Below are positions 2,634 to 32,528 of a stretch of DNA of 64,000 nt, piece by piece. Under the pieces are notes generated by a model. It ran no database searches, was not told the origin of the DNA, and was given only the letters and a program-made list of their open reading frames with translations. The stretch comes from an uncultured Alphaproteobacteria bacterium (lineage in GTDB: Bacteria > Pseudomonadota > Alphaproteobacteria > Rs-D84 > CACZYB01). A program made the translations under genes and the position numbers. Location of the stretch: positions 434,964-498,963 of the forward strand of contig CAKQHZ010000001.1 of the NCBI GenBank assembly GCA_934246625.1, read 5' to 3'. How positions within the stretch are numbered: position 1 is the stretch's first letter; every line of letters starts with the position of its first letter.

Positions 2634-2642
2634 TTTTGCTTC

Positions 2643-2936: not shown

Positions 2937-3074
2937 TATATTCCCCCCATATATACCTTATTAATTTTACAAAAATAAGCATAAAAAGACAAGTAAAAAG
3001 TTAGAGTTAGTTGGAATATCTTCTCCTTTTATTTTTTAATTATTTTTATAGTATGATTTTGAAAGGAGTTTTTT

Positions 3075-3407: not shown

Positions 3408-3824
3408 TTAAGCCTTTGTTTTACCTAGACCACTTTTTTTTGCAAGTGTAGAGCGGGTTTTTGCATAGTTTGGGGCAATCATAGGATAATCATTTGAAAG
3501 TCCCCATTTTTCCCTGTATTCCTTATCAGTCATATTATATTTTGTTTTAAGGTATCGTTTTAACATCTTTAATTTTTTTCCATCTTCAAGACAGATTATG
3601 TATTCTGGGTGGACTGAATCCTTTATATCAACAAATGGTGCCAAAGCATAAGATGATGTTTTGTCAGTTATTGAAATAAGGTTTGAATAGATGTTTTCAA
3701 TCAAAGATGGAATTTCGGTTTTTTCAATTTTATTGTTTGCGACATAACTGCTTGTGATTTGTGATGTTGCAGATATTATTGCAAGTTTTAAATTTTCAGA
3801 TATGTTTTTTTGAATTTTATCCAT
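3408..3824 (-). CDS. mucR: MucR/Ros family zinc-finger transcriptional regulator (138 aa)
   Basis: C-terminal ...EYIICLEDGKKLKMLKRYLKTKYNMTDKEYREKWGL..DYPMIAPNYA... matches the Ros/MucR C2H2-like DNA-binding signature. Size is typical (~140 aa). Confidence 0.8.
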   Translation of the reverse strand: MDKIQKNISENLKLAIISATSQITSSYVANNKIEKTEIPSLIENIYSNLISITDKTSSYALAPFVDIKDSVHPEYIICLEDGKKLKMLKRYLKTKYNMTDKEYREKWGLSNDYPMIAPNYAKTRSTLAKKSGLGKTKA

Positions 3825-3919
3825 TTTTTAATACCTTTGATTTTTAATTTTTTCCCTTGTATTATATCAAAAATTAAGGTAAAAGTAAAAGGTAAAATAA
3901 TTTTTTAAGAGGCGTTTTT

Positions 3920-5188
3920 ATGTTTTCAAAATTTTTTAGTAAATTTTATATTGATATTCTTCCAACACTTCCTTTGAATATAAGTTTTTGGGGTGTTATT
4001 TTGTTGTTTTTATTTGCTTTTTTCCCTTCTTATATAGTTTATGCAAAGCAATCAGTTCAACGAAAAATTATTTATTTATTTTCACTTTTTGATTTTGTTT
4101 TATTTTTCTTTTGTATCTTTGTAAAAATAGAAGATTTTTATTTTGATAGGGGGGATTTAACAATATTTGCAAAAAGTTTGTATGTGATTTTGTTTATTGG
4201 TGCGATTTTTGATGCAGATGATAAAAAGTCTTTCCCATATAAAAAGAAAAGTTTTGTAAAAAAATATATTCAACACCCAATGGAATCTTTTATTTCTCAT
4301 TTTATGTTTGTGGTTTTTCGAATTTTGCCTGTGAAGGTAGCATCTGGTATAGGTGGATTTTTGGGAAGAATGTTGGGTAAAACTCAAAAATGGTATAACT
4401 TTCTTATGGACGCAAATTTGAATATTGCATTTCCAAGAAAAAGAAAGGCTGAAAAGGAAAAAATTAAAACCCAAGTTTGGGATATGATGGGAAGATATGT
4501 AAGTGAACCTGCACATTATAAGAATATTTACAGAAATTATAAAAAATATCTTACCTTTGAAAATGATAAAATTTTGGATAAGTTAAATGGAAAACCTTAT
4601 ATTGCATTTATTGCACATTGTGGAAGTTTGGGACTTATTTCTATACCATTTGCTATTCATAAGGCAGATTGTTCAATTATTTATAAATATCCAAGCAATA
4701 ATTTAACAAATAACCTTGTTATAAAATCTTTTGGTAATGGTATTGGAAAATTAAAATTTATTCCAAATACAGCAAATGGAACAAAGGACGCAATGAGAAT
4801 ACTTAGTTCTGGTGGTGCAATTTTGGCTGTGCCAGATCAAAAGTTTCAAACTGGAATTGAAACAAAGTTTTTTGGACAACCTGTTAAAAGTCCTGTGGGT
4901 GTAGCTAAATTGGCAGGTCATTTTAATTGTCCTATTTTGCCTGTGCAACTTGTTCGTGTTGATGGGGTAAAACATAAAATTATATTTCACGAACCATTTA
5001 TGCCTTTTAAATCAAAAAATAAGGAAATGGATGCAATTAAAACTATGCAAAAAATAAATGATATTATTGAAGGTTGGATAAAAGAAAATCCTTCTCAATG
5101 GTTTTGGGTTCATGACAGATGGGGCATTAAAGATGTTTTAAAAAAGAAATACAAAGGAGAAAAAAATGCAACAAAAAACAATAAGTAA
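3920..5188 (+). CDS. lpxL: Lipid A biosynthesis lauroyl/myristoyl acyltransferase (LpxL/HtrB family) with a ~120-aa N-terminal multi-TM extension
   Basis: C-terminal 300 aa has LpxL-family motifs (NLNIAFP..., HCGSLGL.., FWVHDRW). Strong SD AAGAGG before 3920. An alternative internal start is at 4280 (MESFISH...). Confidence 0.7.
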   Translation: MFSKFFSKFYIDILPTLPLNISFWGVILLFLFAFFPSYIVYAKQSVQRKIIYLFSLFDFVLFFFCIFVKIEDFYFDRGDLTIFAKSLYVILFIGAIFDADDKKSFPYKKKSFVKKYIQHPMESFISHFMFVVFRILPVKVASGIGGFLGRMLGKTQKWYNFLMDANLNIAFPRKRKAEKEKIKTQVWDMMGRYVSEPAHYKNIYRNYKKYLTFENDKILDKLNGKPYIAFIAHCGSLGLISIPFAIHKADCSIIYKYPSNNLTNNLVIKSFGNGIGKLKFIPNTANGTKDAMRILSSGGAILAVPDQKFQTGIETKFFGQPVKSPVGVAKLAGHFNCPILPVQLVRVDGVKHKIIFHEPFMPFKSKNKEMDAIKTMQKINDIIEGWIKENPSQWFWVHDRWGIKDVLKKKYKGEKNATKNNK

Positions 5189-6014
5189 AGAAATTTCTAT
5201 TTCTGGAATTGGTCAACATAAGGGAACTGAAAATACTATTGTTTTAAAACCCGCTGGTGTTGATAGTGGTATAATTTTTGTTATTAAAGGAAAAAAATAT
5301 CCCTTTAATGTTGAAAATGTTTTTGGTGAAGCGGGATATACAACTATTGGTCAAGGAGATGAAAGTGTGAAAACTATTGAACACCTTATGTCTTCTTTGC
5401 ATGGTTTGGGTATTGATAATTTGATTATTGAAACAGATTCAGAGGAAACTCCTATTTGTGATGGGTCAAGTGAACCTTTGTTAGCTGAAATTAAAAAAGC
5501 AGGTGTTTTCGAACAAAATGCTCCTAAAAAAATGATAAAAATTTTGAAAAAGGTTGAGTATAGTGATGAAAAAGGACGTGTTAGCATTGAACCAAATGAT
5601 AAAAATTTGCTTACTTTAGATGTAAGTATTGATTATAGTGGTATTAAGCCTATTGGTTTTCAAAGTGTTAAAATTGATTTGACAGAGGATAATTATGAAA
5701 AATTTGTGGCTCCTGCTAGAACTTTTGCAAGAATGAGTGATGTTGAATATCTTCATTCAAAGGGTTTATGTTTGGGTGCAACACTTAAAAGTGGTATTGC
5801 CGTTGATGAAGAAAAAGTTTTAAATCCAGAAGGTTTAAGATTTGAAGATGAATTTGTTCGTCATAAAGTTTTAGATGCAGTTGGTGATTTATATCTTCTT
5901 GGCCATAGTGTTATTGGCTATTATAAGAATAGTAAAGGTGGACATTTTCATAATAATAAATTAGTAAAGGCTGTGCTTTCTGATAAATCTAATTATGAAA
6001 TAGTTGAGATTTAA
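5166..6014 (+). CDS. lpxC: UDP-3-O-acyl-N-acetylglucosamine deacetylase LpxC (282 aa)
   Basis: Strong similarity to the LpxC C-terminal region (RTFARMSDVEYL..GLCLG...GLRFEDEFVRHKVLDAVGDL...HFHNNKL). SD AAAGGAG. Overlaps the lpxL stop. Confidence 0.9.
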   Translation: MQQKTISKEISISGIGQHKGTENTIVLKPAGVDSGIIFVIKGKKYPFNVENVFGEAGYTTIGQGDESVKTIEHLMSSLHGLGIDNLIIETDSEETPICDGSSEPLLAEIKKAGVFEQNAPKKMIKILKKVEYSDEKGRVSIEPNDKNLLTLDVSIDYSGIKPIGFQSVKIDLTEDNYEKFVAPARTFARMSDVEYLHSKGLCLGATLKSGIAVDEEKVLNPEGLRFEDEFVRHKVLDAVGDLYLLGHSVIGYYKNSKGGHFHNNKLVKAVLSDKSNYEIVEI

Positions 6015-6015
6015 A

Positions 6016-6489
6016 ATGATTATTATGGGAATTGACCCTGGGTTAAGATATTGTGGATTTGGTGTTGTTGAATACAAATCCGGAAGTTTTAGGCATATTG
6101 CAAATGGAACGTTTAAAACAAACGAAAAATTAAGTTTGGCTGAACGACTTTCACAAATTTATTATAATCTTATTGATATATTGGAACGATATAAGCCAGA
6201 TGAAGTTGCGGTTGAGGAAGTTTTTGTGAATATAAATCCTTCTTCAACTTTGAAACTTGGGCAGGCGAGAGGGGTTGCGATTTTGACACCTTCGTTGAAA
6301 GGAATACCTGTATTTGAATATTCGCCAAATTTGATTAAAAAATCAGTAGTTGGTGTTGGTCATGCAGGGAAAGAACAAATACAAATGATGGTGAAGTTGT
6401 TGCTTTCTTCTCCTAAAATAGATAGTGAACATAGTGGTGATGCTTTGGCAATGGCAATATGTCATGCACATAACAGAAATTCCTTTTAA
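6016..6489 (+). CDS. ruvC: Crossover junction endodeoxyribonuclease RuvC
   Basis: MIIMGIDPGLRYCGFGVV... N-terminus and ...GDALAMAICHA motif. The ORF track starts 4 codons earlier at 6004. Confidence 0.85.
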   Translation: MIIMGIDPGLRYCGFGVVEYKSGSFRHIANGTFKTNEKLSLAERLSQIYYNLIDILERYKPDEVAVEEVFVNINPSSTLKLGQARGVAILTPSLKGIPVFEYSPNLIKKSVVGVGHAGKEQIQMMVKLLLSSPKIDSEHSGDALAMAICHAHNRNSF

Positions 6490-6635
6490 TAAACAAAATT
6501 ATTGAAATACGAATTTTCTTCTTGATTTTTAGAATATTTTAGGTAAATATGTAAATGTAAAAGTTTTGTATGGCTTGTCGCTTACAACTTTTACTTTCTT
6601 TGTGTTAAAAAAAGGGGCTATTTTATGGCCCTTTT

Positions 6636-7154
6636 TTATTTCCTTAAATATATATAAAATGCGCCATCGTTTTTGTTTTGGTATGGAGCATATTCGACAT
6701 AAAGAATCATTTGCCTTATATCCATTGCATTTATCCATTTTGGAAATTCTTTCCTTATGGTGCCGGTTTGTTTTTCGGGGTTGCCACGACCTGTAATAAC
6801 AAGTAATGTGCGATTATGAGAAGTATAATTTTGTGATACAAATTTTATAAACGTTTCGTATGCAGATTGAAGTGTGTGTCCGTGTAAATCAAGTGTAGAA
6901 TCGGGCTTTTTTAAATCTTTTTTGATTTTTTTTGCAATGGTTTTATCAATACGAGATGTGTCGGATATTGATAAATCGTTTTCAATTATATGGCGTTCTG
7001 GTTTGCGTTTTACATCTTCGGTTGAAATAAATGTGATTTCAATGGTGTTTTCTTTTTTCCTTGGGATTTTATTAGGTATAACTAAATTCCCCTTTGTTTT
7101 TGATTTAAGGGGCTTTATTGTTGATATAATTTCTTCCCATAATGATTTAGTCAT
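6636..7154 (-). CDS. Smr (small MutS-related) domain protein (172 aa)
   Basis: LDLHGHTLQSAYETFIKFV...LLVITGRG matches the Smr-domain hallmark (DLHG). Confidence 0.7.
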   Translation of the reverse strand: MTKSLWEEIISTIKPLKSKTKGNLVIPNKIPRKKENTIEITFISTEDVKRKPERHIIENDLSISDTSRIDKTIAKKIKKDLKKPDSTLDLHGHTLQSAYETFIKFVSQNYTSHNRTLLVITGRGNPEKQTGTIRKEFPKWINAMDIRQMILYVEYAPYQNKNDGAFYIYLRK

Positions 7155-7194
7155 ACGATAAATATAATATTTTTTGTTTATAAAAGCAAATAAA

Positions 7195-7222
7195 AATCCC
7201 TCTTTTGCAAGAGGGACTTATT
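7195..7222 (-). terminator. Rho-independent terminator downstream of dnaN (hairpin TCCCTCTT/AGAGGGAC plus T-run on minus strand)
   Basis: 8-bp GC-rich stem visible at 7195-7222. A-run on plus strand gives a T-run on minus. Confidence 0.5.
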
Positions 7223-7238
7223 AAATCAAAGTTATGAA

Positions 7239-8357
7239 TTATATTCTCATTGGCATAAGAACATAAATTGCAGATTCGTCATCAAGTTCTGTTATAATAG
7301 CAGGTGATGAGCCATCAGAAATCATAAATTTCATAAATTTACCTTCGATTTGTGATGCAATATCAAGAAGGTATTTTGAATTGAAACCTATTTCCATAGA
7401 ATCGCTGTCGTAAACAACTTCTAAATCTTCAAATGCACTTCCAGAATCTGGAGTTGATGCAAGGAGTGTTAATTTTGATTTTGATAATTTAAGTTTAATT
7501 GCTTTTGATTTTTCGTATGCAACAGATGATACACGGTCAACTGCTTCTGAGAAAAGTTTGCAATCTACTTCCATTGCCTTATCATTTGAAGTTGGAATAA
7601 CCTTTTCATAATCTGGGAAACGACCATCAATAAGTTTTGATGTGATTGTTGTGCCACCGAATGAAAATCTTGCTTTGGTTTCACTTACTTCTACATTTAT
7701 GTCTGATGATGTATCTTCAAGAAGAGCACGAAGTTCGTTCACAACCTTTCTTGGAACAATAATACTTGGCATACCCTTTGCACCTTCTGGGCTTAAAACA
7801 TCTTGACGAGCAAGTCTATGTCCATCAGTTGCAACAGCACGGAGTAATTCCTTTCCATCTTTTTCAAGTGTGTGAAGGAAAATTCCGTTTAAGAAATAAC
7901 GAGTTTCTTCTGTTGATACAGCAAATTTTGTTTTATCAATAAGTTTTATTAAATCATCACATGGAAGAGTGAATTTAAAAGGCATTGATGAGCTATTCAT
8001 TAAAGGGAAATCATCAACAGGAAGTGATGGTAATGTAAATTCTGAATTACCTGCCTTTATAACAACTTTTGAATTATCTGATGATGTTTTAAGTTCGATT
8101 GTGCCTTCTGGAAGTTTACGAACAATATCATATAAAATATGTGCAGGTATTGTTGTTGAACCCTTTTCATTGATTGTTGCTTCTAATTCCTCAATAATTT
8201 CCAAATCAATGTTTGTAGCAGTGAATTTTAAGTTATCGTTTGCTTCGATTTTGATATTTGAAAGAACTGGAATAGTAGATTTTTTTTCAACAATTCTATA
8301 TAAATGAGAAAGTGTTTTTGATAAATTTGCTTTTTCAATAGTAATATACATTTTCAT
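7239..8357 (-). CDS. dnaN: DNA polymerase III beta sliding clamp (372 aa)
   Basis: Length, three-domain clamp signature, MKMYITIEKANLSKTL... N-terminus and C-terminal ...MPMRI typical of DnaN. Confidence 0.9.
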   Translation of the reverse strand: MKMYITIEKANLSKTLSHLYRIVEKKSTIPVLSNIKIEANDNLKFTATNIDLEIIEELEATINEKGSTTIPAHILYDIVRKLPEGTIELKTSSDNSKVVIKAGNSEFTLPSLPVDDFPLMNSSSMPFKFTLPCDDLIKLIDKTKFAVSTEETRYFLNGIFLHTLEKDGKELLRAVATDGHRLARQDVLSPEGAKGMPSIIVPRKVVNELRALLEDTSSDINVEVSETKARFSFGGTTITSKLIDGRFPDYEKVIPTSNDKAMEVDCKLFSEAVDRVSSVAYEKSKAIKLKLSKSKLTLLASTPDSGSAFEDLEVVYDSDSMEIGFNSKYLLDIASQIEGKFMKFMISDGSSPAIITELDDESAIYVLMPMRI

Positions 8358-8431
8358 CTCCTTTGATTTAATTCAAGTTTATTCTAGTCCATAATAAGAT
8401 ATAAAAGCAAGCAATTTTTTTGATATTTTTT

Positions 8432-8458
8432 TATTAAAAAAAGGCTCTTGTTAGAGCC
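8432..8458 (-). terminator. Rho-independent terminator downstream of tig (GGCTCT-TGTT-AGAGCC hairpin)
   Basis: Perfect 6-bp stem at 8443-8458 flanked by A/T runs. Confidence 0.6.
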
Positions 8459-8464
8459 CTTTGT

Positions 8465-9766
8465 TTATTTTTTTACTTTGGTAAATTCTTCAGGTTTTAC
8501 TTCGCGTTCCTTTGTTTTTACCTTTGAAAGCATTATATCCAAAACCTTGTCTTCAAAGATTCCAGCACGGATTGCTTCGGTTGCAGATGGATTTTTTTGA
8601 TAGTATTCAAAAATTTGACCTGCTTGGGTTGGATATTTCATTGCTTCGCCCATAATTGCTTGTTGAACATCGTTTTGTGATATTTCAACTTTTTCCTTTT
8701 TACCAATGTCAGCAAGGATAAGACCAAGTTTTACACGGCTTTCTGCTTGCTTTTTTAATTCTTCTTTTTTCTTCTTTTCTGCCTTTTCATCAAGTTTTTC
8801 AGATGAAGAATGTTGGAATTGATGGAACATATATTCTGTTTCTTGATTTACAAGAGATTCAGGAAGTTCAATCTTTTCATCAGCAAGTTTATCAAGAAGT
8901 TCATCTTTCATTTGAGCTTTTGATGAGTTTTCATAATTTTGTTCAAGTAATTCTTTTACATAAGATTTTAGGTCTGCTAAATCTTTTCTTTTAAGTTCAA
9001 CAGCAAATGCGTCATCGATAGCAGGTATTTTCTTTTCCTTTATATCGTTAAGTTTTACTTTGAATACAACTGGTTTTCCAGCAAGTGTTGCATGGCCGTA
9101 ATCCTTTGGGAAACTTACGTTAACATCAAATTCATCACCCTTTGAATGACCGATAATTTGATCTTCGAATCCAGGGATAAATGTGTTTGAGCCAAGTTCA
9201 AGAGGGTAATTTTCACCCTTGCCACCTTCGAATGCTTTACCATTATCAAAGCCTTCAAAATCGATAACAGCTATATCACCAGATTTAATTTTTCTAGCTT
9301 CTGAAATTGATTCAGTTGTAAATCTTGATTTTGCGATGTTTTCGATTGCTTCGTTAATTTCCTTATCTGTTGCCTTTGCAACCTTTTTTTCAAGAGTGAT
9401 TTTTGAAAAATCAATATCCTTTATTATTGGAAGGATTTCAAAATCACAAGAGAATTTTAATGGTTCGTTGCGAACAAAGCTGTCAACTTTTACATTTGGT
9501 TGTGTTGCTGGTGTAATATCATGTTCTTTGCAGTATGAAGATAAAGTGTCGTTTATTAAAGAATTGATAACATCACCAATGAAATGACCTTCGTATTTTT
9601 GTTTGATTACTTCCATAGGAACATGTCCAGGACGGAAACCCTTTTCCTTATGTGTTTTTGCAAATTCAGTTAATTGTTCGTTTAATTTTTTTTCAAATTC
9701 ATCAACTGGAATTTCAAAAGATAATTCGTATTTAATTCCTTTAACTTTTTCTTTTGTTGCTTGCAT
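8465..9766 (-). CDS. tig: Trigger factor (433 aa)
   Basis: Three-domain architecture with the central FKBP-like PPIase segment (GKxxxFxV, FPxxYG) and size typical for Tig. Confidence 0.9.
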   Translation of the reverse strand: MQATKEKVKGIKYELSFEIPVDEFEKKLNEQLTEFAKTHKEKGFRPGHVPMEVIKQKYEGHFIGDVINSLINDTLSSYCKEHDITPATQPNVKVDSFVRNEPLKFSCDFEILPIIKDIDFSKITLEKKVAKATDKEINEAIENIAKSRFTTESISEARKIKSGDIAVIDFEGFDNGKAFEGGKGENYPLELGSNTFIPGFEDQIIGHSKGDEFDVNVSFPKDYGHATLAGKPVVFKVKLNDIKEKKIPAIDDAFAVELKRKDLADLKSYVKELLEQNYENSSKAQMKDELLDKLADEKIELPESLVNQETEYMFHQFQHSSSEKLDEKAEKKKKEELKKQAESRVKLGLILADIGKKEKVEISQNDVQQAIMGEAMKYPTQAGQIFEYYQKNPSATEAIRAGIFEDKVLDIMLSKVKTKEREVKPEEFTKVKK

Positions 9767-9796
9767 TTTTTTTCCTTAGATTTTTAAGAGTTTGTT

Positions 9797-9881
<85 letters not shown>

Positions 9882-9987
9882 AAATTGTTATAAATCTTGT
9901 ATATTTATAGCATAAAAAAAAAATAAATCCATAAAAAATTTAAAATTTTGAAAAAAGTATGATATACTTCTTATTATGGAGGAAAAA

Positions 9988-10461
9988 ATGAAAAAACTTT
10001 TGGTTTTATTTATGTTGCTTAGTTTTAATGTTTTTGCGGGGGAACAACGTTTTTCAGGTGATGTCTTACCGCGATTTATGGCATTAAAGGCAAATAAAAT
10101 AAATGCCAGAGTCGGTCCAAATGTGATGTATCCTGTAAAATATGTTTATACAAAGAAATTTTTGCCTGTGGTTGTAATAAATGAATATTATGGTTGGTAT
10201 CAAATAAAAGATATGAATGGTGATTTGTCATGGGTGTATAAAAGCTATTTAACATCAAAACCGTATGCAATGACACAAAAAGATGGCGTTTATTTGTATG
10301 AAAAACCAAAAATGACAGCCGATATTTTGGCAAAGGTTAATAAGGGTATAATTTTTTCTGTGGATAAGTGCAAAGATAATTTTTGCGAAGTGAAAACAAG
10401 TTATATGGGAAACGTTTTTGAAGGCTATATTTTGGAAGATGAACTTTATGGTATAAATTAA
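9988..10461 (+). CDS. Secreted bacterial SH3-like (SH3b) domain protein
   Basis: Signal peptide MKKLLVLFMLLSFNVFA. ...YGWYQIKDMNGDLSWVYKSYL... resembles SH3b. GGAGG SD 6 nt upstream of ATG 9988. Confidence 0.6.
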   Translation: MKKLLVLFMLLSFNVFAGEQRFSGDVLPRFMALKANKINARVGPNVMYPVKYVYTKKFLPVVVINEYYGWYQIKDMNGDLSWVYKSYLTSKPYAMTQKDGVYLYEKPKMTADILAKVNKGIIFSVDKCKDNFCEVKTSYMGNVFEGYILEDELYGIN

Positions 10462-10519
10462 AGGAAGTAAAAAAAAGAGGTAGAAAAAACTACCTCTTTT
10501 TAATTTAAAGAAATTTGAA

Positions 10520-11395
10520 TTAACATTCTTCTTTCTTTGTAACGCCTTCACCAACTGCAAAACGAACAAATTTTACAATCTTTGCATCAGAAGATATTGA
10601 TTTAACAACATCTTTGATTTTCTTTGAAGGTTCCATAAAGAATGCTTGTTCATTTAAAACAACTTCTTCGTAGTATTTGTTGATTCTTCCGTTAATCATC
10701 TTTTCAACAATTTCAGCTGGCTTTCCTGATTGAAGAGCTGTGTCTCTGAATATTGCCTTTTCACGTTCAAGTGATGCTTCATCAACATTTTCAATGTTTA
10801 AGAATGAAGGTGCAGCAGCAGCAATGTGCATTGCTATTGTATCACCAACTTCAACGATTTTTGCTTTATCAGCAGATGATTCGATACCAACAAGCACAGC
10901 AATCATACCCATACCTTCTGCAACACGGTTGTGAATGTATGAAATTACTGCACCGTTTTCAACTTTTATAACATCAGAACGACGAATGTTTAAGTTTTCA
11001 CCTATTGTTGCGATTTCATTTGCTAATGCTTCGCTTACTGGCATACCATCGATTGATGCTGATTTGATTTGGTCAATATCACCATCTTTTTCAAATGCTA
11101 CATCAGCAACCTTTTTAACAAATGTTTGGAATTTTTCGTTTCTTGCAACAAAGTCAGTTTCAGAATTTACTTCTACTACTATACCCTTTGTGCCTTCAAC
11201 TTTGGCTGCAACAACACCTGCTGCTGCTTCTCTATCGCCCTTTTTTGCTGCTTTTGATAAACCTTTTTTTCTTAGGATATCAATAGCTGCTTCGATATCA
11301 CCATTTGCTTCAACAAGTGCCTTTTTACAATCCATCATACCAGCACTAGTTCTGTCTCTTAATTCTTTTACTAAACTAGCTGTAATTTCTGCCAT
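10520..11395 (-). CDS. tsf: Elongation factor Ts
   Basis: MAEITASLVKELRDRTSAGMMDCKKAL... is the canonical EF-Ts N-terminus. Start is placed at MAEIT, 1 nt after the rpsB stop. The ORF track extends 30 codons upstream, overlapping rpsB. Confidence 0.9.
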   Translation of the reverse strand: MAEITASLVKELRDRTSAGMMDCKKALVEANGDIEAAIDILRKKGLSKAAKKGDREAAAGVVAAKVEGTKGIVVEVNSETDFVARNEKFQTFVKKVADVAFEKDGDIDQIKSASIDGMPVSEALANEIATIGENLNIRRSDVIKVENGAVISYIHNRVAEGMGMIAVLVGIESSADKAKIVEVGDTIAMHIAAAAPSFLNIENVDEASLEREKAIFRDTALQSGKPAEIVEKMINGRINKYYEEVVLNEQAFFMEPSKKIKDVVKSISSDAKIVKFVRFAVGEGVTKKEEC

Positions 11396-11396
11396 A

Positions 11397-12155
11397 TTAT
11401 GCCTCCTTTTTAACTTCAACTTTTGGGTTAAGTGCTGAACCAAGGTCTGCACCAGAATTTTTAAGTTGTTCTTCAAGTCCATCAAGTATTGCTTTTACAG
11501 CCAAATCACAGTAAAGTTTGATTGCCTTTATAGCATCATCGTTTCCTGGGATTGGGTAGTTTACATTTGATGGGTCAGAATTTGTATCACAGATTGCAAC
11601 AACTGGAATATCAAGTTTGTTTGCTTCTGTAATAGCTAAGTCTTCTTTTGATGCATCAATAACAAATATTATATCAGGAGCACCGTTCATATCGATAACA
11701 CCGCCAAGAACTGCTTGTAATTTTTTGTGTTCAAGTTCCATCTTTGCGATTTCTTTTTTTGTGAAACCAAGATTTTCAGCGTTAGCAATATCTGCTTCTA
11801 ATTTTTTAAGTTTTTTGATTGAGTTTACAACAGTTTTCCAGTTTGTAAGCATACCACCCAACCAACGTGTGTTGATGTAGTATTGTCCGCACATTTCAGC
11901 TGATTCTTTTACAATGTCTTGAGCTTGTCTTTTTGTGCCTACGAATAAGATTTTTCCGCCGTTTGCAGCAGTATTTCTTAATGCAGTAAGACCAGCATGA
12001 AGCATTGGAACTGTTTTTTGTAAATCAATAATGTGAATCTTATCTTTTACACCAAAGATGTATGATGCCATTTTTGGGTTCCAACGACGTGTGTGGTGAC
12101 CAAAGTGGCAACCTGCTTCGATAAGTTCTTTCATTGTAAATTTAGGGAATGTCAT
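11397..12155 (-). CDS. rpsB: 30S ribosomal protein S2
   Basis: MTFPKFTMKELIEAGCHFGHHTRRWNPKM... is the canonical uS2 N-terminus. rpsB-tsf synteny. Confidence 0.95.
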   Translation of the reverse strand: MTFPKFTMKELIEAGCHFGHHTRRWNPKMASYIFGVKDKIHIIDLQKTVPMLHAGLTALRNTAANGGKILFVGTKRQAQDIVKESAEMCGQYYINTRWLGGMLTNWKTVVNSIKKLKKLEADIANAENLGFTKKEIAKMELEHKKLQAVLGGVIDMNGAPDIIFVIDASKEDLAITEANKLDIPVVAICDTNSDPSNVNYPIPGNDDAIKAIKLYCDLAVKAILDGLEEQLKNSGADLGSALNPKVEVKKEA

Positions 12156-12342
12156 TTTTGTATCCTTTCATTTTTTATTAGTTATCCCTCTATTCAACAA
12201 ACCGATTCTTCGGACTAAAAGGCAATTTCAAAGGGAAAAAACCTTGTGTTGAATATGTGTATTTATCTTTACTTTTTCAAATAAAGACCTTTGAAAAATA
12301 GCTTTTTTTATAAAAAAAGTCAAGTGAAATCATTAAAAATGC

Positions 12343-12371
12343 TTGCAATTTTAAAATTTTTGGGATATAAA
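12343..12371 (+). promoter_or_regulatory. Sigma-70-like promoter for tRNA-His (TTGCAA-N17-TATAAA)
   Basis: TTGCAA at 12343-12348, 17-nt spacer, TATAAA at 12366-12371. TSS predicted about 12 nt before the tRNA 5' end. Confidence 0.5.
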
Positions 12372-15500: not shown

Positions 15501-15675
15501 GAAGTCCATTTGCAAATGGAGGACCATCATAGAATACAAATTCGTTCTTTTCATCACGTTCGTCAACAGAGCGTTCGAAAATCTTTTCCTTATTCCAAAA
15601 GGCAAGAATCTTTTCCTCTATTTCAGGAAAATTGGGTTTTGTTGTGGTTTCTGGATAAATATTTTTACTTGACAT
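12562..15675 (-). CDS. ileS: Isoleucine--tRNA ligase, type 2 (eukaryote-like, 1037 aa)
   Basis: N-terminus FPEIEEKILAFW...YDGPPFANGLPHYGHVL (HIGH motif variant) and a KMSKS-region. The long C-terminal extension is typical of type-2 IleS. Confidence 0.9.
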   Translation of the reverse strand: MSSKNIYPETTTKPNFPEIEEKILAFWNKEKIFERSVDERDEKNEFVFYDGPPFANGLPHYGHVLQSFTKDTVARYQTMKGKKVNRRWGWDCHGLPPELKTEKELGISGKKAIEEYGVDKFTDKCRIDVLTYANDWKGIINRLGRWVDMENAYKTMDKEYSESIMWAFKTLYEKGLLYEDFRILPYSWAAETPLSNFEVNQAYQDKTDTTATVKFALENGLTLLVWTTTPWTLPSNLMLATGANIEYTIFEKDSEKLTLATARIPAYKKELEGATEIGKIMGSELKGIHYKPLFPYFEKYRDEYNAFQVLNGDFVSTEDGTGVVHIAPGFGEDDFNLCKSYNPNFPILCPIDSTGCFNCEVKDFEGKQVFDTNNDILARLKVEGKLFKKDQLVHSYPFCWRTDKPLIYKAMSSWFVRVSQIKDKLIKANQTITWIPEHIKNGRFGKWLEGARDWSISRNRFWGAPIPVWKSDNPEYPRIDVFGSIAEIEKASGMKVVDLHRPHIDKIVYKNPDDPTGKSMMRRVPDVFDCWFESGSMPFASCHYPFENKDWFEKNFPADFITEATDQTRGWFYTLVVMGVALFDKAPFKTCVCSGFVFDEQGRKLSKKLGNYAEPTEFFNKYGSDAFRWLLLSSPLLRGEIAKISKEGTEVSATARKSQIPLYNAYHFFTLYANADGIKATYDLSSDNIMDRYIIAKLDELKENASTYLDKYDIATFCGKVEKFLDILNNWYIRQSRERFWGTSVDKQTQQKAFNTLYSVLIDLCKIMAPLMPFTTEFIFKNLTGELSIHLDLYPKANKNIDTKLIEAMDMVQDVCSAGKNIREDVGIRNRQPLQSMTIASPKAEILKPYTEIIKSESNVKEVHFTLDIDKYAKKLLYIYTPIVGKRLGRALADIQKASKANDYTIENGICKIAGYELSPNEFEIRVEILGDIKGKATSDNSAVVLLDTQLTPALETEGIIRDFIRSIQEERKSRNLNVSDRIELSYYTETKSIIDGIKLYENEIASTVLSTKITLAQSALTSKVDNTDLSFDIKKV

Positions 15676-15737
15676 AATTGTTTCCTTTGTTTAAAATGTG
15701 TCCGTTTTAATATTTATTATAATAGTAGGATTTAAAA

Positions 15738-16514
15738 ATGAATTCAATAGAAAAAGATAGTTATTTGCGAGAAAAGTTTGCAGGAAAGCCAGTTTCTGAA
15801 GTTGAATATTGTGATGAAGAAAAAAATAAACTTGTTATTTTTGATTTTGACGAAACTTTGGTTCAAAGTAAAGATATGTTTTTTAATGCGAATAAAAGAG
15901 CGATGGAAATTTTAAACCTTCCACATAATGACTATATCGTTTCAAATATATTTATTCTTGTAAATAGTGAATATTTAGGTTGGGGAAAGGATTTGAAGGA
16001 ACAAGGTGAAATTTATGAAAATTTATATGCTCCTTTGGTGACAAAACTTTCTAATACCGAAGAATTTTTAAATCAAGTTAAGTTTTATAATGTTATGCAT
16101 TCTGTTATCAAAGAATTGGCAAAATTGAATATTGCTTTGGCGGTTGCTTCTTCTCGTGATTTATATTCTATACTTTCCGTTTTAAAGCGTGAAGGTGTAA
16201 AAGGTTATTTTGATATTATTGAAGCAACTGAGGGTGGTAAAAATTTCCGTGATAAGCCTGATACTCATATTGTTCAATATATTTCTCAGGAAGTTGGAGT
16301 TCCTCTTGAAAAGGCTGTGATGGTTGGTGATTCAAAATGTGATATTGAAATGGGAAAATCCGCTGGTATGAAAACAATAGGTGTTGGATTTGGTGCGTTT
16401 ACAAGTTTGGAAAAAATGAAATCTTGTAGACCTAATGTTTTGCTTAGTCGTAAGGAAGAATTGAAAGATATTCCTGTTCATATAAAATATTTGTTAAATC
16501 AAAAATCAAAATAA
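15738..16514 (+). CDS. HAD-superfamily hydrolase (phosphatase-like, 258 aa)
   Basis: Motif I FDFDETL (DxDxT). Later S/T and K...GDS.D motifs (...VGDSKCDIEMG). Confidence 0.7.
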   Translation: MNSIEKDSYLREKFAGKPVSEVEYCDEEKNKLVIFDFDETLVQSKDMFFNANKRAMEILNLPHNDYIVSNIFILVNSEYLGWGKDLKEQGEIYENLYAPLVTKLSNTEEFLNQVKFYNVMHSVIKELAKLNIALAVASSRDLYSILSVLKREGVKGYFDIIEATEGGKNFRDKPDTHIVQYISQEVGVPLEKAVMVGDSKCDIEMGKSAGMKTIGVGFGAFTSLEKMKSCRPNVLLSRKEELKDIPVHIKYLLNQKSK

Positions 16515-16590: not shown

Positions 16591-18432
16591 ATGAAGTATG
16601 ATGTTGTTGTGGTTGGTGCTGGACACGCAGGAATTGAGGCTGGTTCCGCATCTGCTAGATTAGGTCTTAAAACGGCTCTTGTAAGTTTTTCAAAAAATAA
16701 TATTGGAGAAATGAGTTGCAATCCATCTATTGGTGGACTTGGTAAAGGTCATTTGGTAAGAGAAATTGATGCTCTTGATGGTGTTATGGCAAGGGCGATT
16801 GATTTTGCAGGGACTCAATTTAGAGTTTTAAATGCTTCAAAGGGGGCTGCGGTTCAAGGTCCACGTGCACAAGCAGATAGAGAGCTTTATAAAAAGGCCG
16901 TTAATTCAATTTTGGCTGAATATAAAACTTTGGATATTATAGAAGACGAAGTTATAGAAATTCTTTTTGATGATGATTTTAAAAATGTTAAGGGTGTTGT
17001 TTTAAAGTCCGCTGGTGTAATAGAATGTAAATCAGTTGTCCTTACAACTGGAACTTTCCTTAATGGTATTATGCATACTGGGGAAGAAAAAACAAAGGGT
17101 GGAAGAATTGGTGAAAAAGCGTCCTATGGAATTACAGAATCGCTTAAAAAAGCCGGCTTTTCTATTTTACGACTTAAAACTGGAACCCCAGCAAGACTTT
17201 CAATGAAGACTATTGATTATAGTGAACTTGAGTGTCAAACAAGTGATGAAGTGCCTGAACCTTTTTCATATATGACAGATAAGATTACACAAGAATTGAT
17301 ACCTTGTTATATAACCTATACAAATCTTAAAACACATAAAATTATTACAGATAATAAAGATAGGACTCCTCTTTATAATGGGCAAATTAAATCTATTGGT
17401 CCAAGATATTGTCCAAGTATTGAAGATAAGGTTGTTCGTTTTGCTCATCACGAATCTCATCATGTGTTTTTGGAGCAAGAAGGTTATGGTTCAGATGTGA
17501 TTTATCCAAATGGAATTTCAACATCATTGCCAAAAGATGTGCAAGATGAGTTTATTCATTCTATTAAAGGGTTAGAGCATGTGAAAATTCTTCGCTATGG
17601 TTATGCGATTGAATATGATGCAATAGATGCTCGTGAGTTAAAAGCTACACTTGGTTCTAAACGCATAAAAGGACTTTATTTTGCAGGTCAGATAAATGGA
17701 ACAAGTGGTTATGAAGAAGCCGCAAGTCAGGGTATTCTTGCTGGTATCAATGCGGGATTGTTTGCAAAGGGTGAAGATGAAGTTGTTCTTGATAGGGCTC
17801 AAGCATACATTGGTGTGTTGGTTGATGATATTACAACTTTGGGTGTTGATGAACCATACAGAATGTTCACTTCTCGTTCAGAATATAGGTTAAGTATTAG
17901 GGCGGATAATGCCGACCAAAGATTGACACCTCTTGGTATCAAAATTGGGGTGGTTGGTGATAAAAGAACCGGCTTTTTCAATGAAAAAATGAAAAAAATG
18001 GACGAGTTTAAAAAGTTTTTAAAATCTCATAAACTTAATCTTAAAATGCTTAAAAGTGTTGGAATAGATGTTGTTGGTATTGCTGGAAACAATTTGTATG
18101 ATGCTTTGCGTTATGCAGAAATTGATATGAAAGTTTTAAAGCAACTTTATCCTGAAATTTCAAATTTTGATGAAAAAATTGTTAATCAAATTGAAATAGA
18201 AGGTAAATATCAAGGCTATTTAAAACGTCAACAAAAGGATATTGAAGCATATAAAAAAGACCAAAGTTTGAAAATTCCATCAAATATTGATTATGACAAA
18301 GTTGGTGGACTTACCTTAGAAGTTAGGGCAAAGTTGAAAAAGGCAAATCCTGAAACTTTGGCTTCGGCTTCTCGAATCCCTGGGATTACTCCTGCGGCTT
18401 TGACTTCTTTGTTAAAATATGTGAAAAAATAG
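16591..18432 (+). CDS. mnmG: tRNA uridine 5-carboxymethylaminomethyl modification enzyme MnmG/GidA (613 aa)
   Basis: MKYDVVVVGAGHAGIEAG FAD-binding N-terminus. Highly conserved GidA core. Confidence 0.95.
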   Translation: MKYDVVVVGAGHAGIEAGSASARLGLKTALVSFSKNNIGEMSCNPSIGGLGKGHLVREIDALDGVMARAIDFAGTQFRVLNASKGAAVQGPRAQADRELYKKAVNSILAEYKTLDIIEDEVIEILFDDDFKNVKGVVLKSAGVIECKSVVLTTGTFLNGIMHTGEEKTKGGRIGEKASYGITESLKKAGFSILRLKTGTPARLSMKTIDYSELECQTSDEVPEPFSYMTDKITQELIPCYITYTNLKTHKIITDNKDRTPLYNGQIKSIGPRYCPSIEDKVVRFAHHESHHVFLEQEGYGSDVIYPNGISTSLPKDVQDEFIHSIKGLEHVKILRYGYAIEYDAIDARELKATLGSKRIKGLYFAGQINGTSGYEEAASQGILAGINAGLFAKGEDEVVLDRAQAYIGVLVDDITTLGVDEPYRMFTSRSEYRLSIRADNADQRLTPLGIKIGVVGDKRTGFFNEKMKKMDEFKKFLKSHKLNLKMLKSVGIDVVGIAGNNLYDALRYAEIDMKVLKQLYPEISNFDEKIVNQIEIEGKYQGYLKRQQKDIEAYKKDQSLKIPSNIDYDKVGGLTLEVRAKLKKANPETLASASRIPGITPAALTSLLKYVKK

Positions 18433-18448: not shown

Positions 18449-19486
18449 ATGAAACCATGTAATTGTTGCTGTTTCCCATTTGAAAGAATTATGTTAGAAG
18501 GTGATGGGGAGGTAAGTTTTTGTTGCCAAAGCAATAATTACAAGTATGTTTTAGGAAATATTTTTTCAGATTCCTTTGAGGATTTATGGTATGGTGAAAA
18601 GGCTATAAATTTTAGAAAATCGATTCTTGACGGGTCGTATAGATATTGCAATTTAGATGTTTGTGGTGATTTTTGTCCTTGGAATTGTTTTGATGCGAAT
18701 GGTAAAGATAAAGAAAAATTATTGTATCCACCATATCCAAAATATGTAAATATAAGTTATGTGTCTTCTTGTAATGTAAGATGTATGACTTGTCGAGATA
18801 AACTTTGTTTGGAACGACCTGAAGATACTGAGCAATTTGATAAAATTACAGATAAAGTTATTGATTTGTGTTGCAATGCTAAAACGGTTTATCTTGATGG
18901 TTCAGGTGAGCTTTTTACAAGTAATCATTTAAAGAAAATGGTTCATAAGTTGGTTGATAAATATCCGAATTTAAAATTTCATATACATACTAATGGTTTG
19001 CTTTGTGATGAACAGCATATTAAAGAATTTGGTTTAGAAGGTAGGATTTTATCACTTAATATTTCTATACACTCAGCAACAAAGAAAACTTATGAAACTA
19101 TAGTCAGAGGAGGGCATTGGGAACAACTTATTCAAAATTTAGAGTATATAAAAAGTTTGAATATTAAAGAAGTTTATTTCATTTTTGTTTTACATTCTCT
19201 TAATTATAAAGAAATGCCAGCTTTTGCAAAAATGGCAAAAAAGTATAATGCAAAAGCAAAGTTTTGGAGATTTAGAAATTGGGAAACATCTCAGATGTGT
19301 AGAGAAATTGATAGATATTCATGTTGGGAAAGTTGGCATCCTGATTATAAGAATTTTATAAAGATTTTAAGCAAACTTAAACGTGTAGGGAATTATATAC
19401 TTGCAGAACCTTTTTTACGAAAACTTCAAGCTGGCGCAAAGGATTCCTTTGTTGATAAAATTGTTAATTTTTTTAATAAAAAATAG
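18449..19486 (+). CDS. Radical SAM enzyme with N-terminal SPASM/twitch-like Cys-rich domain (345 aa). Function unknown.
   Basis: CxxxCxxC (SSCNVRCMTC) about 110 aa from the N-terminus. The N-terminal 90 aa CNCCC...GDGEVSFCC...LGNIFSDSFEDLWYGEKAINFRKSIL...CNLDVCGDFC resembles a SPASM auxiliary-cluster domain. Confidence 0.65.
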   Translation: MKPCNCCCFPFERIMLEGDGEVSFCCQSNNYKYVLGNIFSDSFEDLWYGEKAINFRKSILDGSYRYCNLDVCGDFCPWNCFDANGKDKEKLLYPPYPKYVNISYVSSCNVRCMTCRDKLCLERPEDTEQFDKITDKVIDLCCNAKTVYLDGSGELFTSNHLKKMVHKLVDKYPNLKFHIHTNGLLCDEQHIKEFGLEGRILSLNISIHSATKKTYETIVRGGHWEQLIQNLEYIKSLNIKEVYFIFVLHSLNYKEMPAFAKMAKKYNAKAKFWRFRNWETSQMCREIDRYSCWESWHPDYKNFIKILSKLKRVGNYILAEPFLRKLQAGAKDSFVDKIVNFFNKK

Positions 19487-22301: not shown

Positions 22302-22336
22302 TATATTATATAATAACTTTATAAAGGAATTTGGAA

Positions 22337-23014
22337 ATGACAGATAAAAAATGGAAAAATAAGCATTATGAAAATACAGATGTTAAAAAAGAATCTGAGT
22401 GTGGTTGTAAGTGTGGTGAAAAATGTAATTGTGAAAAGGATAAATGTGCATCTGGAAATTGTGAATGTGGAAAGGATTGTAAGTGCCATCATGAACATCA
22501 TTGCAATGATTGTGGTGAAGGTGTTGAATGTCCAGATAATGGTTGTGAAAAGGAATTTGATAAAATTGAAAATTTAAAGGCTGAAGTTGCTTCTTGGCAA
22601 GAAAAGTATATAAGGACTTTGGCTGATTGTGAAAATGCAAAACGTCGTGCCGATATTGATGCAAAAAATATGATTGATTATAAAATCGCAAAATTTGCAA
22701 AGGATATGTTGCCTTTGGCTGATAATATTGCTTTGGCTTTGGCTTCTATTGAAGGAAAAGTTGATAGTAGTGTTATTGAAGGTTTGAAATCTATACAATC
22801 TGGTTTTATTAGCGCATTAGAAAAAAATAATATTTGCAAAATTAAAACTGTGGGTGAAAAACTTAATCCTCAGGAACATTGTGTTGTTATGCAAGTTGAT
22901 GACCCAAATGTAGAAGAAGGTGTTGTTGCACGTGAGCTTCAAGCTGGTTATAAGTTGGGTGATAAGGTTATTAGAGAAGCAATGGTCGCAACTTCAAATG
23001 GAAAAAAGAACTAA
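22337..23014 (+). CDS. grpE: Nucleotide exchange factor GrpE with an about 60-aa Cys/His-rich metallothionein-like N-terminal extension
   Basis: GrpE core ...ENLKAEVASWQEKYIRTLADCENAKRRADID... onward. The N-terminus is CGCKCGEKCNCEKDKCASGNCECGKDCKCHHEHHCNDCGEGVECPDNGC. SD AAAGGAA 6 nt before ATG 22337. The ORF track begins at an upstream TTG. Confidence 0.85.
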   Translation: MTDKKWKNKHYENTDVKKESECGCKCGEKCNCEKDKCASGNCECGKDCKCHHEHHCNDCGEGVECPDNGCEKEFDKIENLKAEVASWQEKYIRTLADCENAKRRADIDAKNMIDYKIAKFAKDMLPLADNIALALASIEGKVDSSVIEGLKSIQSGFISALEKNNICKIKTVGEKLNPQEHCVVMQVDDPNVEEGVVARELQAGYKLGDKVIREAMVATSNGKKN

Positions 23015-23747: not shown

Positions 23748-24056
23748 ATGATGAAAAAATTTCTATTATTTTTTTCTATTTTATTTTGTGTATTTTTCAA
23801 AGTGAATTCTTCCGTTTATGCAACTGTAAGCAGCAATTCTCTTGAAAAAATTCTATTTCAATATTGTGTTCCAAAAGAAGGAAATTGTGATGTAAAAGCC
23901 ACATATAAAAACGGTAAATGTATTTGTCCTGGTGATAAATTATATATGGACAGAGAATGTTTTAAACCTGTTTGTCCTTCTGGAACTTATATCTATTATA
24001 GTAACGACACAGATTCTTGTGGTGCGGGAAATTACAGAACAAAAGTCAGAAATTAA
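23748..24056 (+). CDS. Small secreted Cys-rich protein (102 aa) with a QYCVPxEGNCDVKATY module
   Basis: Signal peptide. 10 Cys in about 75 mature residues. Paralogous to 43731..44147. Confidence 0.7.
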   Translation: MMKKFLLFFSILFCVFFKVNSSVYATVSSNSLEKILFQYCVPKEGNCDVKATYKNGKCICPGDKLYMDRECFKPVCPSGTYIYYSNDTDSCGAGNYRTKVRN

Positions 24057-24150: not shown

Positions 24151-25227
24151 ATGAACAATAAAAAATATATAATATCGGTAATAGGTGTGTTATCTTTTGT
24201 TGGAATTGCACACGCTGCTATTTTTCAATGCAGAACTTGTGAAGAGGGGACTTATGGTGATGGAACATCTGTAAGTTGCACAAAATGTCCGACTGGGGCA
24301 GTTTGTCCTGAGGGAACTGGAGCACCAATTTATTTATCAAATTATAAAGATAAGTTATTATCTGTATGTGGTGAGATAGGTAAGGAAATTGCAATAGATA
24401 CAGGTTTTTCTTCCAGTAATTTTGTTTCAGAAATGATTGATAAACAAAAAGTAAAAATAAATTATAGTGGAGATATAATTAAAAAGGGAGAAAGTGGTTA
24501 TAATTATGCAAGGGCATATTATGAAGTTAGTTGTTATGATCTTGATGGTTATTATGCAAGTAGTGGATATAAAGCTATTACAGATTTTATTCAAAGCAAA
24601 ATATGTAATGATGAATCAGAAGTAAAAAGTCATTTAGAACCTATGAGTTCATCATCAACTTTAACACCTGGAATATATAGGATTGATGTAGCTGGTGCCG
24701 GTGGTGGCGGTGCAGGTGGAAATGCTTGTGGATGGTGTTATGGAGCTGGTGGAGGTTATGGAGGTAATGGTGATTTGCAGACTAGATATATATATTTAGT
24801 TGATAATCAGCCTTATAATTATGTTGTTGGTGCTGGTGGTGGTAATGGTTGTGGTTCTGGTTGTAATCATCGTGGAGTAAATGGTAAGAAAGGTGGAACA
24901 TCATCCTTTACTTTGTTAGGAAATGTTTTTGAGGCATTAGGTGGAGATGGTGGAGAATCTGCACATAGTGGTTGTGATGTGTCTAATGGTAAAAATGGTG
25001 CTGCTGCTGGTAATGGTTTAGGTGGTGTTGGTGGTGAGAATAGATATGGTAACAAATGTGCTTATGATGGAAATACTGGTTGGGTAAAGATTTATCAAAT
25101 TGGTATGAGAAAAACCGGTTGTCCTTCTTTAAGACCATCTACTTCTTCTGGTGGATGTTCTTCAGGTGGTTATTTTGGCGGTTGCTCTACAGGTGGTTAT
25201 TTTGGTGGTTGCTCAGGAGGATACTGA
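24151..25227 (+). CDS. Secreted Cys/Gly-rich protein (358 aa) with an ephrin-receptor/TNFR-like CxxCxxGTY...CxxCPxG repeat, a glycine-rich domain and C-terminal GGYFGGCS repeats
   Basis: Signal peptide ...GIAHA. CRTCEEGTYGDGTSVSCTKCPTGAVCPEGTG. Gly-rich stretch VAGAGGGGAGG...GGGYGGNGD...VVGAGGGNG... C-terminal GGYFGGCSTGGYFGGCSGGY. Confidence 0.75.
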   Translation: MNNKKYIISVIGVLSFVGIAHAAIFQCRTCEEGTYGDGTSVSCTKCPTGAVCPEGTGAPIYLSNYKDKLLSVCGEIGKEIAIDTGFSSSNFVSEMIDKQKVKINYSGDIIKKGESGYNYARAYYEVSCYDLDGYYASSGYKAITDFIQSKICNDESEVKSHLEPMSSSSTLTPGIYRIDVAGAGGGGAGGNACGWCYGAGGGYGGNGDLQTRYIYLVDNQPYNYVVGAGGGNGCGSGCNHRGVNGKKGGTSSFTLLGNVFEALGGDGGESAHSGCDVSNGKNGAAAGNGLGGVGGENRYGNKCAYDGNTGWVKIYQIGMRKTGCPSLRPSTSSGGCSSGGYFGGCSTGGYFGGCSGGY

Positions 25228-31961: not shown

Positions 31962-32528
31962 ATGAAAATCATGAACAAAAAATTACTTTTATTATATATG
32001 TCTTTATATCCTTGTATAACAAATGCAAATGTATATATGTGTTTGCGATGTCCTGTTGGAACTTATGGTGATGGAAAATCATCATATTGTTCACCTTGTC
32101 CAAAAATAGATGGAGCACATTATTTGGAAGATTCAAAGAATTGTGAATGGGAGTGTGATGAAGGTAAAGTTGTTGTTGCAAAATATGCGAATGGTGGAGG
32201 TTGTTGCACTGAACCAGCTAAACCAAAATGTCCTTCTGTTAAAGTTTATGTTTTCGGTAACTGTTCAGGTTCGGGTTCTCATGGAGGATCTTGTCAACTT
32301 CAATATTCAAAAACTTTGGAATGTGGAGAAAGTTTTCAAAATGATGGGAGTGCGACAAATACACCAAATGGACAATATGATTGTATAACGATGGCTTGTA
32401 GAAGCGGAGGTTTTGTTAAAAATATTAATGGAGAAATGTGGTGTTATAAAGACTCCTATGATATGAAAAAAAATAAAAATGGACGTCATTATGATAGGTC
32501 AGGTGATGCTAAATGTCTAAAAGAGTAA
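31962..32528 (+). CDS. Secreted Cys-rich protein (188 aa) with ephrin-receptor/TNFR-like CLRCPVGTYGDGKSSYCSPCP repeat
   Basis: Signal peptide. 25 Cys. SD AAAGGGAGA. Motif shared with 24151..25227 and 44255..44908. Confidence 0.7.
   Translation: MKIMNKKLLLLYMSLYPCITNANVYMCLRCPVGTYGDGKSSYCSPCPKIDGAHYLEDSKNCEWECDEGKVVVAKYANGGGCCTEPAKPKCPSVKVYVFGNCSGSGSHGGSCQLQYSKTLECGESFQNDGSATNTPNGQYDCITMACRSGGFVKNINGEMWCYKDSYDMKKNKNGRHYDRSGDAKCLKE

Follow-up and report, generated by a model that had tools for sequence, protein, structure and literature searches.

Background

Radical S-adenosylmethionine (SAM) enzymes bind their SAM-cleaving [4Fe-4S] cluster through a CX3CX2C motif. Some of them possess an auxiliary Fe-S domain of the SPASM or twitch type, the signature of which runs CX9-15GX4C in its first half and, in the full SPASM domain, CX9-15GX4C...CX2CX5CX3C...C. 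Here we analyze one such enzyme, the 345-amino-acid (aa) product of a gene at positions 18449..19486 on the forward strand (+) of a 64,000-nucleotide stretch of DNA (hereafter the window) from an uncultured Alphaproteobacteria bacterium (assembly GCA_934246625.1, contig CAKQHZ010000001.1, positions 434,964 to 498,963). The gene is a complete open reading frame (ORF) for a radical SAM enzyme in which, by Pfam and AlphaFold2, a twitch domain stands N-terminal to the core. We consider it moderately probable that this is a two-cluster enzyme tailoring a cell-surface glycoconjugate or its precursor.

The SPASM/twitch auxiliary domain is usually a C-terminal extension of the radical SAM core (PMC9012708). 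The full SPASM domain has seven or eight conserved cysteines (PMC9477430), whereas twitch denotes a shortened SPASM domain with one cluster, held by four cysteine ligands in BtrN and by three in MoaA (PMC9012708). BtrN, the 2-deoxy-scyllo-inosamine dehydrogenase (structures 4M7T and 4M7S), is a twitch enzyme acting on a carbohydrate-like substrate, and its four-cysteine auxiliary cluster has been proposed to serve as an electron acceptor (PMC9012708). For the SPASM/twitch megacluster, the RadicalSAM.org resource has recorded conserved cysteines that lie N-terminal to the barrel, with no structures to go with them (PMC9477430). Canonical SPASM maturases, such as AlbA, PqqE, anSME, MftC, SuiB, SkfB and CteB, have their auxiliary domain at the C-terminus, with seven to eight cysteines and two clusters, and most of them also possess an N-terminal peptide-binding domain and an associated precursor gene. 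Lastly, the NCBIfam model NF033640 (N_Twi_rSAM, "twitch domain-containing radical SAM protein") describes proteins in which a twitch domain is followed by the core and a C-terminal extension. To our knowledge its members are uncharacterized, and literature searches found no paper on them.

Results and discussion

A twitch domain precedes the radical SAM core

An earlier note on this DNA, made from the letters alone, had proposed a SPASM/twitch-type Fe-S domain N-terminal to the core and placed the radical SAM motif about 110 residues into the protein. A profile search bears out the first proposal, as Pfam SPASM (PF13186) matched aa 7-68 of the query over positions 1-64 of the 67-position profile (E-value 1.9e-9; a score of 38.1 bits, with the gathering score at 21.5). 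Radical_SAM (PF04055) matched aa 105-262 (E-value 1.9e-13; 51.4 bits against a cutoff of 29.5), and the motif itself, CNVRCMTC, is read at aa 108-115 (18770..18793), with C108, C112 and C115 as its cysteines. We assessed conservation in alignments of 24 and of 76 homologs. The CX3CX2C motif is invariant in the larger alignment, and since the twitch domain precedes the core in all 76 of its sequences, the N-terminal SPASM match cannot be attributed to chance.

Five cysteines ahead of the core are conserved among the 76 homologs, namely the invariant C25, C67 and C72 and, at 90% or more, C7 and C26, the latter two being matched in conservation by G20. The spacing C7-X12-G20-X4-C25 agrees with what we take to be the first half of the SPASM/twitch signature, and C67-X4-C72 comes next. 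The remaining cysteines of the query (C4, C6, C8, C76, C80, C284 and C292) are not conserved; C4, C6, C8, C76 and C80 are lineage-specific, and the pair C76/C80, which would mimic the second SPASM motif, occurs in few homologs. Four to five conserved cysteines fit one auxiliary [4Fe-4S] cluster and therefore a twitch domain, the truncated form of SPASM in which three or four cysteines are conserved, rather than a full SPASM domain with its seven or eight. The auxiliary domain, which by the Pfam match, the alignment with BtrN and the conserved cysteines extends over aa 7-72 (18467..18664), thus fits a predicted one-cluster twitch domain, and we infer a stoichiometry of one such cluster beside the SAM-cleaving one. 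The earlier assignment to SPASM consequently stands as a statement of homology, but not as one of a two-cluster domain.

The rest of the protein is that of a standard radical SAM enzyme with an added C-terminal region. The CX3CX2C motif lies in a partial TIM-barrel core (aa 99-262; 18743..19234), delimited by PF04055 and Foldseek, as expected of the superfamily. Within it, GSGE (aa 151-154; 18899..18910) is a "GGE"-type motif which we take to bind SAM. Among the 76 homologs G153 is invariant and E154 at least 90% conserved, while S158, N182 and S206 show little or no variation, a pattern consistent with an active enzyme. The linker between the two domains (aa 73-98; 18665..18742) varies in length and sequence, contains the non-conserved C76 and C80, and has a conserved P97 near its end. 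The C-terminal alpha/beta extension (aa 263-345; 19235..19483), seen in the alignments and the AlphaFold2 model, is marked by the family-specific conserved residues F272, H297 and L307; as it has no conserved cysteine, we expect no cluster in this region.

From the 76-sequence alignment AlphaFold2 built a model with a mean predicted local distance difference test score (pLDDT) of 95.3 and a predicted template modelling score of 0.91, the pLDDT falling to 86-90 in the linker. The model points to one compact fold, in which the N-terminal domain is predicted to pack confidently on the core. Foldseek matched this core to NifB, viperin, DesII, BlsE, MoaA and SkfB with a probability of 1.00, and found in the PDB no solved structure matching beyond the core (query-normalized TM-score <0.5). 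In all, the PDB searches by sequence and by Foldseek returned only the BtrN twitch domain and generic radical SAM cores. The order of the two domains, twitch and then radical SAM core, can be regarded as practically certain.

A large sister family of NF033640

The closest solved relative of the auxiliary domain is BtrN. In a phmmer search of the PDB, aa 6-72 of the query aligned with residues 168-232 of BtrN (4m7s) as the best match (whole-sequence E-value 2.4e-5), with C7, P10, G20, C25, a GNI..W block and C72 in register with its C-terminal twitch domain. The two proteins differ in several respects. The domain is C-terminal in BtrN; the downstream cysteines of the query are spaced CX4C as against CX2C in BtrN; the two cores have little sequence similarity (3.9 bits); and BtrN is absent among the 50 best Foldseek matches listed for the query. 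With the canonical SPASM maturases the query has Pfam SPASM homology in common, and its core aligns with those of SuiB, SkfB and CteB at TM-scores of 0.40-0.48. However, it departs from them in having the cysteines for one auxiliary cluster, an N-terminal position of the domain, and neither a peptide-binding domain nor a precursor that could be detected.

The NCBIfam model with the same layout as the query, NF033640, matched 23 of the 24 family members, with an E-value of 2.1e-23 for the best of them. Several distant relatives align with it in one collinear stretch, from profile position 2-4 to about 310-358; in P0037, for example, aa 7-341 correspond to positions 2-358 of 398. Yet the query scored 57.5 bits and the distant relatives 62-128 bits, and because the scores (57-128 bits overall) all lie below the curated cutoff of 170, the query family is a sister branch of NF033640 by this measure, without a model of its own. 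The placement of the twitch domain before the core is already catalogued and not new. Hence the permuted domain order suggested by the earlier note is real in that the domain does precede the core, but NF033640 already models the same order.

No NCBIfam family reached its cutoff for the query, the 24 family members or the distant relatives. The second-best match was TIGR04321, the spiro-SPASM protein, which matched 17 of the 24 members and, in the query, covers the core only (aa 90-270 against profile positions 223-412 of 510); membership was rejected at 62 bits against a cutoff of 250. Likewise, membership in MiaB/RimO, RlmN, TYW1 or QueE-type families was rejected (TYW1 gave 30.6 bits against a cutoff of 318, and the link to mnmG described below is that of one clade only). 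The family is also not a known tRNA- or rRNA-modifying one with an N-terminal zinc ribbon, an alternative that the earlier note had raised against itself. When 1.84 billion cluster representatives were searched with a profile, 2090 clusters at 50% identity had E<=1e-30, and the best 150 of these are mostly collinear with the query over almost their full length. With SPASM and twitch domains usually C-terminal, a large, well-conserved and structurally unsolved family with the domain in front makes a useful target for radical SAM enzymology.

The locus and its close relatives

The gene is an intact ORF with an ATG start and the sequence GGGGA 4 nt upstream of it, in a window of 32% GC, that is, AT-rich DNA. 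A full-length protein 99% identical to its product represents 52 clustered sequences from public run assemblies. A pseudogene or artefact was rejected on the intact ORF, the conservation of all motifs, this cluster and the high confidence of the model. A tblastn search found no second copy of the gene in the window. The genes around it run in the order rpsB-tsf, ileS(-), HAD, mnmG, radical SAM gene, PBP1A(-), folD(-) and grpE. The HAD-IA phosphatase gene (15738..16514, +; identified by Pfam and NCBIfam searches) is preceded by a promoter-like site at 15669-15697 and appears to be the first gene of a putative operon of HAD, mnmG and radical SAM genes. Next comes mnmG (gidA; 16591..18432, +; Pfam GIDA E-value 3e-159), the stop codon of which is 16 bp from the radical SAM gene. 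No terminator-like site was seen between the two, and they are probably co-transcribed. On the other side the stop codon of the convergent PBP1A gene is 0 bp away.

In close relatives ileS(-) is retained, as are mnmG and a single or double HAD gene, and one to three tandem radical SAM copies come after mnmG, while the downstream flank varies between PBP1A/folD and a pyrroloquinoline quinone (PQQ)-like beta-propeller gene, TPR_21 and RNase PH. The radical SAM proteins are 48-59% identical to the query, as against about 80-88% for MnmG, 76-88% for IleS and 79-81% for PBP1A from the same genomes; in one comparison the value is 58% where IleS and MnmG stand at 88% and PBP1A at 79-81%. Moreover, in locus L001 the copy in the same position is 54% identical to the query, against 59-60% for two copies elsewhere in L001. 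Such a pattern suggests a fast-evolving accessory gene whose copies are gained and lost, rather than a conserved partner of MnmG.

These observations bear on the possibility that the enzyme modifies tRNA or rRNA in concert with MnmG. The 16-bp gap without a terminator-like site would suit such a role, and so would the adjacency of the two genes in all close alphaproteobacterial relatives despite their differing downstream flanks. But the two genes adjoin each other within a single clade only, one whose MnmG proteins are 80-88% identical, so that inherited synteny explains the pairing, and mnmG is absent near the radical SAM gene at the other loci examined. Paralogs in the same genomes sit elsewhere (the second copy of L001, L019 and L013), the radical SAM protein evolves far faster than MnmG and is present in one to three copies, unlike a conserved RNA-modification partner, and we saw neither an RNA-binding domain nor any fusion related to RNA. 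We hold this explanation to be improbable and, on the data here, treat mnmG as context rather than as a functional partner.

Tandem arrays of two to three copies after mnmG occur in related Alphaproteobacteria and of up to five in Gastranaerophilales (for instance L005 10001-12051 and L007 7918-11053, and also L023, L026 and L037), sometimes with a divergent radical SAM-only paralog on the opposite strand. The HAD-IA phosphatase evolves as fast as the radical SAM protein (51-59% identity against 88% for MnmG), and its gene is tandemly duplicated in two relatives (L001 1689-3147 and L003 6667-8126). For its specific substrate every NCBIfam equivalog match was below cutoff.

The compactness of the locus also bears on a role in the maturation of peptides. 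Many SPASM/twitch radical SAM enzymes are peptide maturases, the query gave weak sub-threshold matches to NCBIfam peptide maturase families, and the window encodes several cysteine-rich proteins with signal peptides, which the earlier note had offered as conceivable substrates. An enzyme acting on proteins or on peptides made on ribosomes and modified post-translationally (RiPPs) would ordinarily have an adjacent precursor gene and usually a domain like the RiPP recognition element (RRE) or PqqD. As the earlier note had observed, the gene sits alone: the flanking intergenic spaces of 16 bp and 0 bp are too small for a precursor gene, and the precursor-like small ORFs around it all lie inside coding genes, none being non-overlapping. 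Only the twitch and radical SAM domains were detected in the protein, with no RRE/PqqD-like peptide-binding domain, and there is no peptidase or RiPP-type exporter nearby. The cysteine-rich proteins are encoded 4-25 kb away, nothing ties them to the radical SAM gene, and among the genes that recur near the homologs elsewhere none of this type was conspicuous. As the informative contexts of relatives are glycan clusters, and no peptide-related domain occurs among 33 fused relatives (both described below), a maturase is a very improbable reading, and the earlier note's link to peptide maturation finds no counterpart in the data. The annotation for this window would change accordingly from a SPASM to a twitch enzyme, and probably not a peptide maturase.

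Gene neighbourhoods and fusions of distant relatives

Among the GTDB species genomes our scan found 79 loci, of which about 66 with crude annotation entered a clustering of neighbourhoods; the counts of neighbours are lower bounds, as the crude ORF calling missed the target ORF in 7 loci. The 79 loci span Gastranaerophilales, metagenome-assembled genomes (MAGs) of Rickettsiales, Spirochaetia, Acidobacteria, Bdellovibrionota, Rhodoblastus, Ruegeria, Rubrivivax, Mesorhizobium, Roseburia and others. Homologs are present in the culturable Ruegeria arenilitoris, Rubrivivax gelatinosus IM 151 and Mesorhizobium muleiense, hosts which offer settings to settle the function. Tandem paralogs recur: the 66 loci together contain 93 family genes, at most five of them in one array.

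The commonest neighbour other than a paralog is a group-1 glycosyltransferase (GT1_4), found at 10 of the roughly 66 loci, and several loci have larger sets of genes for surface polymers. In L010 glycosyltransferases of groups 2 and 1 (GT2 and GT1) precede the radical SAM gene, and in L024 it follows FkbM, guanosine diphosphate (GDP)-mannose 4,6-dehydratase, two GT1 genes and a second FkbM. In L089 WbsX is followed by two radical SAM genes, an FkbM-like gene and two glycosyltransferases; L094 combines an ABC-2 exporter and GT_STM0557 with several radical SAM genes; and L099 encodes a deoxythymidine diphosphate (dTDP)-sugar isomerase, an epimerase, several GT2s and a B12-dependent radical SAM protein. 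In L100 a PepM-cytidylyltransferase, a thiamine pyrophosphate (TPP)-dependent decarboxylase, an iron-dependent alcohol dehydrogenase (Fe-ADH) and a glycerophosphotransferase (Glyphos_transf) are followed by the radical SAM gene and a methyltransferase, and this is likely to be the locus of a phosphonate-decorated cell-surface polymer. Closer to the query, P0030, a 43% identical homolog from a related gut MAG, is encoded two genes upstream of a 295-aa protein of the DAHP_synth_1 family, a candidate that could be a 3-deoxy-D-manno-octulosonate 8-phosphate (KDO-8-P) synthase.

Two of these clusters contain further genes. In the glycan-type cluster of L094 a 1013-aa Asp/Arg-hydroxylase-domain protein (9320-12361) is encoded between several radical SAM genes, and the L100 cluster (434-10198), in which the homolog is P0041, also includes a large 60KD_IMP/sulfatase-like membrane protein.

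Domain fusions point in a similar direction. Among 33 long representatives of the family the partners are class-I methyltransferases (6 cases), FkbM, GT2, GT1_4 and polysaccharide pyruvyl transferase, with no further ones; none of the 33 has a peptide-, protease- or RNA-related partner. Separately, P0099, P0183 and P0211 (1160-1565 aa) have two to four family stretches in one chain, which are either real fusions of several radical SAM units or tandem genes merged by gene calling.

From these gene contexts and fusions of relatives we infer the substrate class, surface glycoconjugates processed together with methyltransferases, and in this form it is testable. Several points weigh against tailoring of a surface glycoconjugate. 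At the query locus and in its closest relatives no glycosyltransferase or sugar-nucleotide gene adjoins the radical SAM gene, the neighbours of the query being the housekeeping genes ileS, HAD, mnmG, PBP1A and folD, and the Gastranaerophilales arrays too are found among housekeeping genes. Because the contexts of the query and of the arrays are of this kind, the assignment to glycans rests on relatives of 26-37% identity and on the fusions. The GT1 neighbour is limited to 10 of about 66 crudely annotated loci, some of the fusions could be artefacts of metagenomic gene calling, and literature searches on N-terminal SPASM/twitch domains and on glycan-linked radical SAM/SPASM enzymes found no characterized member.

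The same data could mean that the enzyme tailors a small molecule or lipid other than a glycan, such as a phosphonate head-group, a cofactor or a membrane lipid, with the glycan contexts reflecting head-group chemistry. The PepM/Ppd/Fe-ADH phosphonate cluster of L100, where the radical SAM gene is followed by a methyltransferase, speaks for it, as does the fact that the most frequent fusion partner is a methyltransferase rather than a glycosyltransferase. So do the best matches of the core, which are the small-molecule enzymes NifB, viperin, DesII, BlsE and MoaA, and the operon shared with a HAD phosphatase. Nevertheless, most of the informative contexts contain several glycosyltransferases, sugar-nucleotide enzymes and polysaccharide exporters, and L100 itself has a glycerophosphotransferase for polymer assembly. 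We regard this alternative as rather unlikely.

A predicted mechanism

If the enzyme does tailor surface glycoconjugates, its sequence and the likeness to BtrN suggest the following scheme. The cluster bound by C108, C112 and C115 would cleave SAM to a 5'-deoxyadenosyl radical. The twitch domain (aa 7-72) is predicted to hold one auxiliary [4Fe-4S] cluster, fully ligated by four of the cysteines C7, C25, C26, C67 and C72, and would place it at the barrel's open side, in the manner of BtrN with its C-terminal twitch domain. The substrate would be a sugar or other head-group of lipopolysaccharide, O-antigen, capsule or a teichoic-like polymer, or an activated precursor of one of these, and family members may often act alongside SAM-dependent methyltransferases and glycosyltransferases. 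A hydrogen atom would be abstracted from a C-H bond of the substrate, and the auxiliary cluster would accept or relay an electron. The outcome might be an oxidation of the BtrN type, or else a rearrangement or epimerization that is likewise redox-coupled and related to it; this choice of reaction type, drawn by analogy, is quite tentative and more doubtful than not. In the query genome the gene would be an accessory one of variable copy number within the housekeeping HAD-mnmG operon.

Were this scheme correct, the family would yield the first structure of a twitch domain docking on the barrel from the N-terminus, and would show how an auxiliary cluster can come to occupy the same working position when the topology of the chain is different. 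A further possibility, for which we would claim limited confidence, is that the family catalyzes an undescribed radical tailoring of surface glycoconjugates or of phosphonate or methylated head-groups, together with fused methyltransferases, and that the tandem paralogs serve to vary the cell surface. In that case cell-surface variation would be what the fast turnover of these paralogs, by duplication, loss and divergence, brings about in gut Alphaproteobacteria and Gastranaerophilales.

Other features of the window

An Rfam scan of the window returned three tRNAs only, none of them near the radical SAM gene. Four cysteine-rich proteins with signal-peptide-like N-termini, presumably the cysteine-rich secreted proteins of the earlier note, are encoded on the forward strand (+) at 23748-24056, 24151-25227, 31962-32528 and 44255-44908. 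None of the four has a Pfam family above cutoff. Two of them have a common N-terminal motif of the C.C..GTYGDG type, of which the other two have looser variants, and one of the four also has a Gly-rich C-terminus. The GrpE protein of the window (22331-23014, +) is extended at the N-terminus by a Cys/His-rich, metallothionein-like stretch of about 70 aa (CGCKCGEKCNCEKDKC...) and has 17 cysteines in all, with Pfam GrpE spanning aa 74-222 only; two related genomes, L001 and L003, encode a GrpE with a similar extension.

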